Below, in pieces: positions 5,538 to 10,455 of a stretch of DNA of 40,080 nucleotides (positions are counted from its first letter, which is position 1; each line of letters begins with the position of its first letter). The notes under the pieces were generated by a model that saw only the letters and a program-made list of their open reading frames with translations, searched no databases and was not told where the DNA came from. Position numbers and translations under genes: made by a program. The DNA is taken from NCBI GenBank assembly GCA_964650935.1, contig CAZYYC010000006.1, positions 1-40,080 on the forward strand, in the 5' to 3' direction. Source of the stretch: an uncultured Anaerolineales bacterium. Its GTDB lineage: Bacteria > Chloroflexota > Anaerolineae > B4-G1 > SLSP01.

Positions 5538-8500
5538 CTATTGTACTTGGTTGGGGGGAACTGCCGAATCGCTTTCCCTGTTGAGTCCTTCGCGCACCAA
5601 CGCGAGCACGGCCCCGCCATAGGCCTTCGCCTTGCGTGCGCCAACACCGTGGATGCTCAGCAGGGCGTCGATGGTCTGGGGCTTGGTCGCCGCGATGGCC
5701 CGCAGCTGGGCATCGTGGAAGATCACGTAGGCCGGCAGCCCACGAGCTTTGGCTTCCGCGCTGCGCCACGCGCGCAGCTGCTCGAACAGGTCACTGTTGA
5801 CTTCAGGAAGCTCCTCGGCTTCCTGGCGATGGGTCTGACGCTCGTCCTCTTGCGGCAGATGCGCGTCCAGGACCCGGGGGTTGCTCAGCGCAGCCTGTCC
5901 GGAGGGGGTGAGCTCCAGGACGATGCCGCCGTTGTCGAGCTCACGATCGGAGAGGAGCCGGTGGTGCAGGAGCCCGTCAATCAGGTCCCCGACCATCGAT
6001 TGTGAGCGGAAGCGCAGCGCCCCGAAGGCGTTCAACCCTTGCCCTTTCTCCGGCGCCTTGTCATCGCCGCGCAGGATGCGGATCAGGCTCCAACGCCCCC
6101 AGCCGTGGCCGGTCTCATCGAGGCAGTCGAGGATGGTGAGTAGCTGCTGCCGCTTGGTCGGCAGGTCGATGCCCGGTGCGGCCTCCGTCGCGACGCAGTT
6201 GTCGCATGCTGAACACCGATCGATGGGGCGGTCGCCGAGGTAGGTGCTCAGGTGGCCATGGCGGCAGTGATGGGTCCGTGCGTAGGCGGCGATCTCGTCG
6301 ATGCGCTGCGCCTGGATGGTGGCGAAGCGGTCGATCCAGAGGTGGATGCGCTGGGCGACATCGTCGGGCACCTGACGGCGCTGCAGCAGCAGGTCGCGCC
6401 CGGAGAAGCGGCACGCGATCAGGCCCTGGTCGGCCCACGTGAGGACCTGGGCCTCGATCTCGGCCGGCGGGATCTGGGCGCGTTGGGCGGCTTCGAGCAG
6501 ATCCACCTGCAGCCATTGGTTGGGGCGGAAGCGCATGGCCTCGCAGAAGGCCTCGAAGCGGTCCGACGATCCTTCAGGCGGACGCCGCAGACAGATGAGG
6601 GCACTTCGCGGCATATCCGGGCCGCGACTGAGCAGCCCGTTCTCCTCCAGAATGCTCAGGCCGACGCGGACCCGGGTGTCGTCGGCGCCAAGGACCCGCT
6701 CGAGGTCCCCTACGGCGATCCGGCCGACCCCTGCTGCGCCCAGCGCGCGCTGGACCGTCGCGTAGAGGTCGCGCAAGAACTCGACGGTGGGCAAGCTACT
6801 GCGCATGCGCTTGGTGAGCAGGGCGCGGTCGCTGCTGCTGTAGAAGAGGATGCAGCGGGCCGGCTGGCCGTCGCGGCCCGCGCGACCGGCTTCCTGGTAG
6901 TAGGACTCCAGCGAGTGAGGGGGCATGAAGTGGATGATGAAGCGGATGTCGGGCTTGTCGATGCCCATGCCGAAGGCGATGGTAGCGACGATGATGCGCG
7001 TCTGCCCCGCCATGAAACGCTCTTGGACAGCATCGCGGTTGTCGATCCCGGCGTGATAGTGCTCGGCGTCGATGTCCCGGCTGCGCAGGAGCGCGGCGAT
7101 CTGTTCGCAGCGGGCGCGCGTGTCGGCGTAGACGATGCCCTGGCCCTTGGTCGCCTGACAGAGGCTGAGGAGGTGGTGGAGCTTCTCGTCGCGATTGGCG
7201 GCGTGGTAGACCTCGAGGCGCAGGTTGGACCTGAAGGTGTCGCCGGTGATGGTGGCCATGGGACGATGCGGGCTGAGGTGCTGAACGATGTCGCGACGCA
7301 CGCGCGGCGGCGCCGTCGCGGTCAGGGCCAGGATCGGGGGCTCGCCCAAGTCATGCCATGCTTCGCCGAGTTTGAGATAGTCGGGTCGGAAGTCATGACC
7401 CCAGACGCTGACGCAGTGCGCCTCGTCCACGACGAGGCGCGCGACGTCGGCCTTGCGCAGGGTGTGCAGGAAGGCCGGCTGGCGTAGCCGCTCGGGGGCG
7501 GCATAGAGGAGGCGGAACTCGCCTCGGGCGGCGCTGTCGAGGCGCCGTTGGAGTTCGTCGCCGTCCAGATTGCTGTTGACGGTGGTGGCGAGCGGGCGCA
7601 AATGCGCCGGGAGCGAATCGACCTGATCCTTCATCAGCGCGATCAGGGGCGAGATGACGACGGTGAGCCCGGCCTCGGCGACGAGGGCGGGCACCTGATA
7701 ACAGAGCGACTTGCCGCCGCCGGTGGGCAGGATGGTCAAGGCGTTGTCGCCGCGGAAGACGCAGGCGAGCGTCTCCAGCTGCCCGGGCAGGAGCTGCTCG
7801 AAGCCGAAGGTGTCGCCCACGGCGGCGTGGATATGGGCGCGCTCGACGTCCGTGACGGAAGGGGCCGGCGATGGGGCGAGGTCCTCAGCCTCAACCGGCG
7901 AACTCGGCGGCGCCGCATGTGGGGCGGTTAGCCGTGCCGCCCGTTCGTGCTCTCGGGTTGGGGCGGTGGCGCGATGCTCCGCCGGCCGGTCTTCGTCGTG
8001 GGCACGTTTCGCGGTGAACAGAGCCTTGAGCTCCTCGAGCTCCTGCTGATAGCGGGCGTCCAGCGCCTCGCCCAGCTCGACCGTGCGCGTCTCCTCACCG
8101 CTGGCCTTGAAGTAGTCAAGCAGGGTCTCGAGGATGGGCGGCGGTAGCTCCCATAGGGCCTCGACGGTGTTGAGCAGGCGTACCGCGTAGCCGCTGGCGG
8201 TGACCCAGTCCTCGTGGGCCCGGTAGAGGGCGACCATGTTAAGCAGGTAGCGCGTGCCGTTGGGGCGCAGCCTGCCTAGGGTGTGGTTCGCCGCGGTCGC
8301 CGCGGCTAGGTCGCCGCGACGGAGCGCGGCCTCGGCACGGACGCGCCAACCGGCGTAGCTCTCCTCGTCGTCGGCAATCAGCTCTGCCGCGATGGCCTCG
8401 GCTGCTTCGTGGTCACCTTGGGCCAGGTGGATGTCGGCCAGTAGCGAGCGTGCCGGCACGCTGCTCTGTCGGCTGAGGCGCGCCTCCATGACCTGCCGCG

Positions 8501-8720
8501 CCTCAGCGTAGCGCTCTTCGGCGGCATAGGCCCGCGCCCGCAGGTCAAGCAGCGAGATCAGATCGGGGCGCTCCTCCTGAAGGATGTCGAGACAGGTGTG
8601 GAGCTCGCCGGCGGCATGCCAACGCTGGAGGAAGCCCAGAAGGCGGGTGCGTTCCTGACCCGCGAGTTGGCGCACATCATCAGGGGACAATCCGAGCTGG
8701 GTCAACAGGTCTGCTTCCAT
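5538..8720 (-). CDS. recQ: RecQ-family ATP-dependent DNA helicase with a TPR-like N-terminal extension of about 330 aa and a C-terminal HRDC domain
   Basis: Helicase motifs LLPGQLETL, ILPTGGGKSLCYQVPAL, VVDEAHCVSVWGHDFRPDY, ALTATA, IVATIAFGMGIDKPDIRFIIH and QEAGRAGRDG. Cys cluster CRHGHL...CSACDNC. HRDC-like end LFEQLRAWRSAEAKARGLPAYVIFHDAQLRAIA. The N-terminus is made of helical A/L/E/R-rich repeats. I trimmed the track ORF (to 8957) to the ATG at 8720 (MEADLLTQ...), 8 nt after the upstream stop. Confidence 0.85.
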   Translation of the reverse strand: MEADLLTQLGLSPDDVRQLAGQERTRLLGFLQRWHAAGELHTCLDILQEERPDLISLLDLRARAYAAEERYAEARQVMEARLSRQSSVPARSLLADIHLAQGDHEAAEAIAAELIADDEESYAGWRVRAEAALRRGDLAAATAANHTLGRLRPNGTRYLLNMVALYRAHEDWVTASGYAVRLLNTVEALWELPPPILETLLDYFKASGEETRTVELGEALDARYQQELEELKALFTAKRAHDEDRPAEHRATAPTREHERAARLTAPHAAPPSSPVEAEDLAPSPAPSVTDVERAHIHAAVGDTFGFEQLLPGQLETLACVFRGDNALTILPTGGGKSLCYQVPALVAEAGLTVVISPLIALMKDQVDSLPAHLRPLATTVNSNLDGDELQRRLDSAARGEFRLLYAAPERLRQPAFLHTLRKADVARLVVDEAHCVSVWGHDFRPDYLKLGEAWHDLGEPPILALTATAPPRVRRDIVQHLSPHRPMATITGDTFRSNLRLEVYHAANRDEKLHHLLSLCQATKGQGIVYADTRARCEQIAALLRSRDIDAEHYHAGIDNRDAVQERFMAGQTRIIVATIAFGMGIDKPDIRFIIHFMPPHSLESYYQEAGRAGRDGQPARCILFYSSSDRALLTKRMRSSLPTVEFLRDLYATVQRALGAAGVGRIAVGDLERVLGADDTRVRVGLSILEENGLLSRGPDMPRSALICLRRPPEGSSDRFEAFCEAMRFRPNQWLQVDLLEAAQRAQIPPAEIEAQVLTWADQGLIACRFSGRDLLLQRRQVPDDVAQRIHLWIDRFATIQAQRIDEIAAYARTHHCRHGHLSTYLGDRPIDRCSACDNCVATEAAPGIDLPTKRQQLLTILDCLDETGHGWGRWSLIRILRGDDKAPEKGQGLNAFGALRFRSQSMVGDLIDGLLHHRLLSDRELDNGGIVLELTPSGQAALSNPRVLDAHLPQEDERQTHRQEAEELPEVNSDLFEQLRAWRSAEAKARGLPAYVIFHDAQLRAIAATKPQTIDALLSIHGVGARKAKAYGGAVLALVREGLNRESDSAVPPNQVQ

Positions 8721-8728
8721 TGCACGCC

Positions 8729-9515: not shown

Positions 9516-9962
9516 CTACAGATGGACGATGGTCAGATCGGGTAGGTGAGCCTGCCAGATCTCGGCGACGAGGCGACGATGGCAGTGGGCGGCGTCGGCC
9601 TCCTTGCACAGCAAGCAGGGCGCGCGGTAGCGGGCCAGGAGCGCCTCACCGACGTGGGTGGCCTCACGGGCCTCGAGCAAGGGCAGGAACTGCTCTGCGT
9701 AGCGCATCCAGTCGCCGGCGCCCTTGGCCTTGTAGGCGTCGAGGATCTCATCGGAAGGCGCCAGCTCGGGGTGGTGTTCGTACGCGATCCCGAAGCCCTC
9801 GGGTAGCAGAAAGGCGAGGGTCTCCTTCTTGGTGTAGCCGGCGAGGTGTGAGGTGTTGCGCAGGCGGATGTCGATCACGGCGTCGACGCCTGCCTCACGG
9901 AGGCGGTGGATGAAGTCGGATAGGGGCCGCTTCTCGTAACCGATCGTGTAGAGCGTGGGCAT
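9516..9962 (-). CDS. DUF488-family protein (paralogue B)
   Basis: DUF488 signature as I know it: N-terminal LYTIGYEKR, VIDIR, and C-terminal CLLCKEADAAHCHRRLVAE. 148 aa. Confidence 0.8.
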   Translation of the reverse strand: MPTLYTIGYEKRPLSDFIHRLREAGVDAVIDIRLRNTSHLAGYTKKETLAFLLPEGFGIAYEHHPELAPSDEILDAYKAKGAGDWMRYAEQFLPLLEAREATHVGEALLARYRAPCLLCKEADAAHCHRRLVAEIWQAHLPDLTIVHL

Positions 9963-9975
9963 AGGATCGACCTCC

Positions 9976-10455
9976 TCAGAACAGCGTCAACTGCTCAGGC
10001 TCGAGAGTACCCTCGGCGAGCGTCCCGTCGGGCTGGATATGGAGCACGGTGGCGTCGCGTGCGAGCAGCGTCTGGGTGATCAGGAGGTGGCGATGGCAGT
10101 GGTGGAAATCGCCCTCGCTGCACATGACGGCCAGCCGCTCACTGCGCGCCAGGTCGAGCAGCTCGTCGATGCCCTGGAGATAGCCAGGGCGTTGGGCCAT
10201 CACCCCGTAATCGGGGGCGACCTGACCGGTCTCCGGGCGTCCGCCCAGACTGCCGCCCTTATAGAGGTAGTGGAACCCGGCCTCCTCGAGGTCGTGGCGG
10301 AGCAGCTCACGGTTGAACTGGCTCGCCCACTGGCTATAGGGCTGACTGCGGACATCGACGAGGAGGGTGATTTGATGCTGCTTGAGGAGCTCCATGAAGT
10401 GCTCAATGGCGTGGTTGCTGTGGCCGATGGTGAACAGTCGGACCGTCTCGGACAT
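9976..10455 (-). CDS. DUF488-family protein (paralogue A)
   Basis: LFTIGHSNH, LVDVRSQP, and C-terminal VMCSEGDFHHCHRHLLI. 159 aa. GGGAGG upstream of the ATG. First gene of the operon. Confidence 0.8.
   Translation of the reverse strand: MSETVRLFTIGHSNHAIEHFMELLKQHQITLLVDVRSQPYSQWASQFNRELLRHDLEEAGFHYLYKGGSLGGRPETGQVAPDYGVMAQRPGYLQGIDELLDLARSERLAVMCSEGDFHHCHRHLLITQTLLARDATVLHIQPDGTLAEGTLEPEQLTLF

Follow-up and report, generated by a model that had tools for sequence, protein, structure and literature searches.

A DUF488/DUF488/DuOB cassette linked to a TPR-bearing RecQ helicase in Anaerolineae: a candidate helicase-coupled DNA-end-processing module

Introduction

Do four adjacent genes of an uncultured bacterium, two of them coding for DUF488 proteins and one for a RecQ helicase, form a functional unit and, if so, what would such a unit do? 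The question is raised by a 40,080-nt stretch of contig CAZYYC010000006.1 (GCA_964650935.1) from an uncultured Anaerolineales bacterium. The whole stretch is called the window here, and all coordinates are its positions. The four genes lie on the minus strand in the order DUF488-A (9976-10455, 159 amino acids, aa), DUF488-B (9516-9962, 148 aa), DuOB, a dual OB-fold gene (8729-9457, 242 aa), and TPR-RecQ (5538-8720, 1060 aa, starting with MEADL). The first three are referred to below as the trio. A reading made from the sequence alone, called here the original prediction, had described the genes as a candidate DNA-processing or defence module for which no described system was known. The results presented below indicate, with a probability that we put at about 0.6, that the region is the Anaerolineae form of a catalogued, uncharacterised DUF488/DUF488/DuOB cassette coupled to a dedicated RecQ, and that its products act as a helicase-coupled DNA-end-processing complex.

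Results

Conservation and linkage of the four genes

According to the table of open reading frames (ORFs), the gaps between DUF488-A, DUF488-B, DuOB and RecQ are 13, 58 and 8 nt on one strand. The co-directional layout with these gaps, as given in the original prediction, is borne out by that table together with the placement of the RecQ start at 8720. This ATG (MEADLL...) is used by independent gene calls on identical metagenome contigs, and the N-termini of 38 RecQ orthologues align to it. Two competing gene models were rejected as artefacts of high-GC sequence. The first is the longest RecQ ORF, reaching to 8957, in which a 79-codon upstream extension (8721-8957, minus strand) overlaps DuOB, and the second is a 152-aa ORF antisense across DuOB (8991-9449, plus strand) preferred by a GC3-based gene caller. 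A scan of the operon sequence revealed no terminator-like site between the four genes.

The linkage was assessed by a genome scan with one genome per GTDB species, in which 104 relatives of this DuOB subfamily were found and the best 80 loci were analysed. The scan alignment consisted of close DuOB relatives, so that the census covers the Chloroflexota subfamily, and the related contigs were covered within ±8-10 kb of each locus. The best 80 of the 104 loci all belong to Chloroflexota and are mostly labelled as Anaerolineae, with a few Thermoflexales, Thermoflexia or Ardenticatenales. In the tblastn census both DUF488 genes were present in 66 of the 70 loci evaluable upstream, and TPR-RecQ in all evaluable downstream loci except one (68/69). 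All four genes were found in one order and on one strand in 56 of the 61 loci evaluable on both sides, an arrangement that is far beyond chance. Clustering of all flank ORFs in 84 loci gave no fifth conserved gene, the commonest flank family occurring in 11 loci. With no fifth conserved family and with unrelated flanks, the cassette alone is therefore the conserved unit. The data support the four genes as a functional unit whose linkage is near-obligate in this lineage. The proposal that they work as one unit is supported by this neighbourhood census, in which the four genes stay together in no fewer than 56 species of Anaerolineae although their flanks are unrelated, and by a natural DuOB::RecQ fusion.

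Some copies of the cassette carry additional genes. Between DUF488-B and DuOB, a gene of about 180 aa coding for PDDEXK_3, a member of the PD-(D/E)XK nuclease superfamily, was observed in five to six species (L037 7276-7821 and L025 4051-4608, also L022, L027 and L032), with identities of 75-86% among its copies. Such a gene may serve as an accessory nuclease or may be a selfish insert. Between DuOB and RecQ, single loci contain an N6/N4 DNA methylase (L025 5682-6764) or a GAF-SpoIIE phosphatase with a T2SSE-like region (L082 8746-10977). Moreover, in at least seven loci (L037 8787-12449; L024, L032, L045, L047, L049 and L054) a DUF559 domain, a Vsr-like endonuclease, precedes the TPR arm of RecQ at the N-terminus; these orthologues are 1180-1257 aa long, and some contain MTES_1575 as well. 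The cassette has thus been shown to acquire nuclease-superfamily modules (DUF559, PDDEXK_3) recurrently. One locus (L080 8001-16344) is organised more loosely, with no DUF488 genes within 8 kb upstream and with DuOB and TPR-RecQ lying 4.7 kb apart; the interval codes for a HEAT protein, a trypsin-FGE-sulfatase fusion and three proteins without a Pfam match.

Coupling of DuOB to the RecQ helicase

An indication that DuOB and RecQ work together is found in locus L092, where the two DUF488 genes are followed by a gene for a single 1047-aa DuOB::RecQ protein (P0125). In this protein DuOB occupies the place of the TPR arm, which is gone, while the insertion characteristic of these RecQ proteins (see below) is kept. 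Because of its length, the protein is not a simple read-through of two genes. Moreover, of all pairs of cassette parts compared for their identity to the window copy, DuOB and the RecQ TPR arm show the highest correlation (r = 0.91 over 57 complete loci; r = 0.82 without the closest relatives). The fusion, along with this correlation, suggests that the TPR arm docks DuOB; as a wider proposal, the docking partner may be either DuOB or the DUF488 pair. The original prediction had seen in the arm a TPR-like sensor. The TPR-like nature of the arm is supported by the structural model and by TPR matches in orthologues, whereas a sensor role is not favoured, since the replacement of the arm by DuOB in the fusion protein points to docking.

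Architecture of TPR-RecQ

The Pfam domains DEAD, Helicase_C, RecQ_Zn_bind, RQC and HRDC are all recognised in the window RecQ above their cut-offs, and GGGKS, DEAH and the four zinc-binding cysteines are invariant in its orthologues. The protein passes the NCBIfam model recQ_fam (363.6 vs cut-off 219.8), whereas its score on the recQ equivalog TIGR01389 is 529.2 vs cut-off 640.2. The match is split into two pieces, which is caused by an insertion at aa 646-781. An AlphaFold2 model built on 39 orthologues (pLDDT 85.6, pTM 0.79) has the bacterial RecQ cores 4tmu and 1oyw as its best fold matches.

In the model, the N-terminal part (aa 1-243; 7992-8720, minus strand, as for the other parts) is an all-alpha TPR-like solenoid of about 14 helices with pLDDT above 90; TPR matches in this arm are weak in the window copy and clear in many orthologues. 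It is followed by a linker predicted to be disordered (aa 244-284; 7869-7991; pLDDT below 50) and by two RecA-like domains (aa 291-642; 6795-7850), which contain DEAD (312-474) with the Walker A motif GGGKS and the DEAH motif, and Helicase_C (513-618). Between the second RecA-like domain and the zinc subdomain lie two predicted winged-helix-like modules (aa 646-781; 6378-6785), in which the secondary structure H-b-H-H-b-b appears twice with pLDDT of about 85-95; in the Pfam assignment this stretch is left uncovered between the Helicase_C and RecQ_Zn_bind matches. This insertion, missed in the original prediction, is conserved in all orthologues and in the DuOB::RecQ fusion as well. The C-terminal part (aa 788-1052; 5565-6359), assigned from Pfam and the model, comprises a helical and zinc subdomain (C819, C836, C839, C842), the RQC winged helix and HRDC. 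The earlier description of a full RecQ with all helicase motifs, a Cys cluster, HRDC and a helical arm was therefore correct, whereas the extension, given as about 330 aa, is shorter and amounts to about 290 aa (arm 1-243 and linker 244-284).

The DuOB protein

The 242-aa protein was considered an orphan without an assignable motif, which does not hold. It passes the Pfam family DuOB (PF22557, 'dual OB-containing domain') with 47.6 bits vs a cut-off of 27 over aa 5-224, which rules out orphan status, and its close relatives are named 'dual OB domain-containing protein' by NCBI. Its sole PADLOC match, to PDC-M45A (PDLC04653), is weak (E 3.3e-7) and covers a part of the protein (aa 3-88); among eight diverse relatives of DuOB, seven likewise match this model alone, and weakly. 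The AlphaFold2 model (pLDDT 94, pTM 0.92) consists of two beta-rich lobes. In Foldseek searches of PDB and BFVD with this model no match reached E <= 0.001, and the top matches, which are not significant, are OB-fold single-strand DNA binders, namely RADX on single-stranded DNA, archaeal RPA, CST and baculovirus LEF-3. Among 43 diverse members, no variation is seen at E79 and S123 and very little at W35, R37, P38, D80 and D172. DuOB is a small family that forms 161 clusters at the 50% identity level in a set of 1.84 billion representatives, and we know of no study of any of its members. In other relatives DuOB is fused to a HEPN_Swt1 domain (P0249, 615 aa) or to HEAT repeats (P0223, 603 aa).

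The DUF488 pair

Both DUF488-A (73.8 bits) and DUF488-B (76.3 bits) pass the Pfam family DUF488, and they share 28% identity. On DUF488-N3a (PF22751, 'active DUF488-N3 subclade'), which has a cut-off of 27 bits, DUF488-B passes with 46.1 bits and DUF488-A remains just under it with 24 bits. In PADLOC, DUF488-A matches PDC-M45B (PDLC04657; E 7.7e-44, aa 5-148) and DUF488-B matches PDC-M45C (PDLC04658; E 1.9e-42, full length). The motifs are TIGHS, DVRS, MCSEGD...CHR and a conserved C-terminal tail QLxLF in DUF488-A, and TIGY, DIR and CLLCxE...CHR in DUF488-B. Over 24 orthologues of each, G11, H12, D34, R36, C112, E114, C120, H121 and R122 are invariant in paralogue A, and D31, R33, C116, C119, E121, C127, H128 and R129 in paralogue B. 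Therefore, the TIG(H/Y), D(V/I)R and C-x-E...CHR motifs, which the original prediction had named as common to both proteins, are upheld in the orthologues; C-x-E and CHR are invariant in both paralogues, and the His of TIGH is kept in paralogue A only.

Since each protein matches a PADLOC model of its own and both are present in Omnitrophica and Chloroflexota, an ancient, non-redundant pair is supported by the sequence comparisons. This agrees with the earlier proposal of two non-redundant subunits rather than a recent duplication. The C-terminus of DUF488-A (within 9976-10020) is strongly conserved (...HIQPDG...EPxQLxLF-COOH). The same tail is kept in the Omnitrophica-type loci L088 and L089, both without TPR-RecQ, and it may be a docking peptide inside the trio.

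Distribution of the trio and genomic context

Across phyla, the DUF488-DUF488-DuOB trio is the core and the helicase partner varies. In a Candidatus Omnitrophica metagenome-assembled genome (L088 1-6213), the genes after the trio code for a NERD protein and, in place of RecQ, for a UvrD helicase of 1006 aa that bears the domains DUF559 and MTES_1575, and a more distant DuOB clade again has a RecQ partner (1080 aa).

The original prediction had also proposed to check whether such loci sit in defence islands. This setting was not seen, the flanks being metabolic or housekeeping genes both in the window and in the related loci. The cassette of the window is flanked by APH, flavodoxin-like, creatininase and FAD oxidoreductase genes, and the window otherwise contains carbohydrate metabolism genes and a cell-wall and division cluster. 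The recurrent flanks elsewhere (84 loci) are housekeeping genes, e.g. those for ValRS, OTCase, an amino-acid kinase and thiolase. Where two genomes share a gene of the flanks, the conservation of the cassette proteins matches that of these neighbours; with ValRS at 83% identity, for instance, the RecQ core is at 81%, DuOB at 76% and DUF488-B at 78%. No DuOB relatives were found on phages or plasmids by tblastn, nor in IMG/VR by a pattern scan. The Anaerolineae operon behaves as a stable chromosomal module, not as mobile defence cargo.

Comparison with known systems

The core of the cassette proved to be catalogued already. PDC-M45 of PADLOC consists of three families in a row, and the window trio resembles it in being adjacent and on one strand, with gaps of 13 and 58 nt, and in combining two distinct DUF488 proteins with a candidate for the DuOB-like component. 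The view that no described system has this composition is therefore wrong for the core, as DuOB with two DUF488 proteins corresponds to PDC-M45 and is covered by the Pfam families DuOB and DUF488-N3a. However, PDC-M45 includes no helicase, whereas the window cassette is tied to RecQ, and the match of the window DuOB to component A is weak and partial. The PDC systems are 145 untested 'phage defence candidates', predicted from copies embedded in BREX, DISARM or type I restriction-modification loci (Payne et al., bioRxiv 10.1101/2024.01.29.577857). Such embedding, the basis of the candidate call, is not seen at the cassette of the window, nor among the recurrent flanks of the 84 loci.

As regards the DuOB/DUF488-N3 families, the window DuOB and DUF488-B pass the curated cut-offs and both paralogues keep the motif set, whereas DUF488-A falls slightly short on N3a. 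The Pfam families DuOB and DUF488-N3a presumably derive from the DUF488-N3 system of Burroughs and Aravind 2023. The RecQ-coupled form may already be covered there. A literature search whose coverage excluded that paper turned up none in which DuOB, DUF488-N3 or PDC-M45 is named in the main text.

The helicase itself shares with the bacterial RecQ proteins of E. coli and Cronobacter the helicase core, the four-Cys zinc subdomain, the RQC winged helix and HRDC. It differs from them in the TPR arm of about 240 aa with its linker, in the double winged-helix-like insertion of about 135 aa and in being encoded with its own predicted OB partner and two predicted DUF488 enzymes. In the classical arrangement RecQ works with SSB, an OB-fold binder of single-stranded DNA, and in BLM-TopoIIIalpha-RMI1/RMI2, as in WRN or BLM with RPA, dedicated partner proteins with several OB folds are coupled physically to a helicase of the RecQ family. 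The likeness of the cassette to these eukaryotic complexes is an analogy only, as DuOB has no sequence or significant fold relation to RMI or RPA; moreover, the operon lacks a topoisomerase, and the DUF488 enzymes have no counterpart.

Two identities of the window RecQ were considered and rejected. PsyrTA/RqlHI, a RecQ-like toxin-antitoxin system, and DpdF, which belongs to the Dpd 7-deazaguanine DNA-modification system, share a RecQ-like core with it, and the PADLOC models of PsyrT and DpdF match it at aa 295-695, whereas RQC, HRDC and the TPR parts are additional in the window protein. DpdF is rejected, its NCBIfam score being 192.7 vs cut-off 550 and its PADLOC match covering the generic RecQ core alone. 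The PsyrT match is likewise one to the generic core, and no PsyrA or Dpd match was obtained among the three small proteins.

Promoter and other features of the window

The 212-bp spacer 5' of DUF488-A (10456-10667) contains the sequence TTGTGC-16 nt-TAGAAT (10494-10521, minus strand; TTGTGC 10521-10516, TAGAAT 10499-10494) exactly as the original prediction had reported. The -35 hexamer matches the consensus at 3/6 positions, for which reason a consensus scanner did not list the site; as a putative promoter it is plausible, with support graded as weak. A GGGAGG-type ribosome-binding site (about 10457-10466, minus strand) lies downstream of it, ahead of DUF488-A. At the other end, an FAD oxidoreductase gene (4200-5498) begins 39 nt past the RecQ stop, which makes the 3' end of the transcription unit uncertain. 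Another promoter-like sequence, TCGGCA-16-TACAAT (5540-5567, minus strand), is located inside the last RecQ codons, just ahead of the FAD oxidoreductase gene.

Elsewhere in the window, an 846-aa ORF (33350-35890, plus strand) of the cell-wall and division cluster combines three Mur ligase domains with FAD_binding_4 and MurB_C and looks like a MurC-MurB fusion; a PBP gene (25858-27636) adjoins it. Two adjacent ORFs (1087-1836 and 1894-2364, plus strand) show coding-like codon bias, but a Pfam search at E <= 1e-5 gave no match for either. No RNA gene was found in the window by Rfam and tRNA scans.

Discussion

The conserved arrangement, the natural fusion and the domain composition of the four proteins are in agreement with a helicase-coupled complex that processes DNA ends. 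In such a complex RecQ would unwind DNA from an end, gap or fork, DuOB, anchored to the helicase by way of the N-terminal TPR arm, would bind the exposed single strand or junction, and the DUF488 A/B pair, with its conserved Cys/Glu/Cys-His-Arg sites, would act on the terminal sugar-phosphate of the nucleic acid. The chemistry of the pair could be end processing of a phosphatase or phosphotransferase type, or an end modification. In their 2023 paper, Burroughs and Aravind reportedly predict DNA-end processing in conflict systems for the DUF488-N3 clade, in line with the links to RecQ and to nucleases observed here. For DUF4326, a sister clade of DUF488, a role in processing the terminal phosphates of ribose has been put forward (PMC9503650). 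The DNA-processing theme is drawn from the resemblance, not significant in itself, of the DuOB model to OB-fold binders of single-stranded DNA, from the recruitment of DUF559 and PDDEXK_3 and from the position of the Omnitrophica trio beside NERD and UvrD-DUF559. The role in DNA processing or conflict put forward in the original prediction is judged plausible.

Several points weigh against this interpretation. To our knowledge, no biochemical activity has been described for any DUF488 or DuOB protein. Neither single-sequence nor profile searches found PDB sequence relatives of DUF488-A, DUF488-B or DuOB, and the OB assignment is based on the name of the Pfam family and on fold matches that are not significant. 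The proposed binding of DuOB to the TPR arm is inferred from one fusion architecture and an identity correlation, and co-transcription of the four genes is assumed from the short gaps only. Moreover, locus L089 contains the trio without any helicase, placed after an MNT-HEPN pair, and DuOB and RecQ occur without nearby DUF488 genes in four loci. Since the trio occurs without a helicase, and DuOB with RecQ occurs without DUF488, the parts can persist, and perhaps function, apart.

The strongest alternative, which we consider possible and clearly less probable than a DNA-end-processing complex, is true anti-phage or anti-plasmid defence, in which the trio would sense or mark invading DNA ends and RecQ, sometimes fused to a DUF559 nuclease, would serve as motor or effector in degrading or blocking the foreign DNA. 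It is favoured by the listing of the trio in PADLOC, based on its embedding in BREX, DISARM and type I restriction-modification loci, and by relatives located beside the MNT-HEPN pair (L089) and beside NERD and the UvrD-DUF559 helicase (L088). The fusion of DuOB to HEPN_Swt1, the nuclease modules and the one DNA methylase recruited into the cassette and the small size of the DuOB family (161 clusters), which fits an accessory gene, point in the same direction. However, the PDC systems are explicitly untested according to their authors, and the Anaerolineae operon stands amid housekeeping genes, with no recurring defence or mobile genes nearby. The cassette diverges at housekeeping rates, one gene order is kept across orders of the class, and no relatives were present on the phages, plasmids and viral contigs searched. 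RecQ, moreover, keeps every canonical domain of the repair type, including HRDC. As to its role in this lineage, a resident function in genome maintenance or surveillance seems slightly more likely to us.

A more specific form of such a resident function may be drawn by analogy, and we regard it as rather doubtful, somewhat behind defence in probability. The Anaerolineae operon would then encode a housekeeping machine for DNA-end repair or resection, composed of RecQ, a dual-OB protein on a TPR arm and the DUF488 A/B enzymes that clean or modify the ends, and the copies in defence loci would be secondary. If this were true, the system would be a functional analogue of BLM with RMI1/RMI2, and DUF488 A/B would represent a new class of DNA-end enzyme.

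It is improbable that RecQ is simply the ordinary housekeeping recQ of the lineage, with a lineage-specific extension, sharing an operon with the trio and joined to it in no complex or pathway. Its core is indeed closest to bacterial RecQ structures and reaches 529 bits on the recQ equivalog, the trio occurs without RecQ in other phyla, and in one Anaerolineae locus (L058) the trio is followed by an unrelated kinase instead of RecQ. Against this stand the natural DuOB::RecQ fusion, the linkage in 68 of 69 loci although the flanks are shuffled, and the fact that the trio is accompanied by a RecQ subfamily with hallmarks of its own, namely the TPR arm and the double winged-helix insertion. The identity correlation between DuOB and the TPR arm, the highest among pairs of cassette parts, also speaks for a common function. 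An action on RNA rather than DNA, e.g. RNA-end repair or modification, is very improbable. In its favour, one relative has DuOB fused to the RNase-type HEPN_Swt1 domain, OB folds bind RNA too, and DUF488 is placed in one group with the C-terminal domain of RapZ, which binds RNA. However, the constant partner is RecQ, which is complete with its zinc-binding, RQC and HRDC domains and has the architecture of a DNA helicase, and the accessory modules are of DNA type (Vsr-like DUF559, PDDEXK_3, N6/N4 DNA methylase).

Summarizing, no new category is opened by this locus, since the core cassette is already present in Pfam and PADLOC; what the present analysis adds to the catalogued core is the RecQ partner, the DuOB::RecQ fusion, the TPR arm and the winged-helix insertion. 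DUF488 is widespread, and here it is locked, along with DuOB, to the well-understood motor RecQ in a compact operon, in which the DuOB::RecQ fusion yields testable predictions on which part binds which. A solution of this system would provide DUF488 with an activity, which might be a DNA-end chemistry of a new kind, and would tell whether PDC-M45 serves as an immune system or as a repair module borrowed by defence loci.

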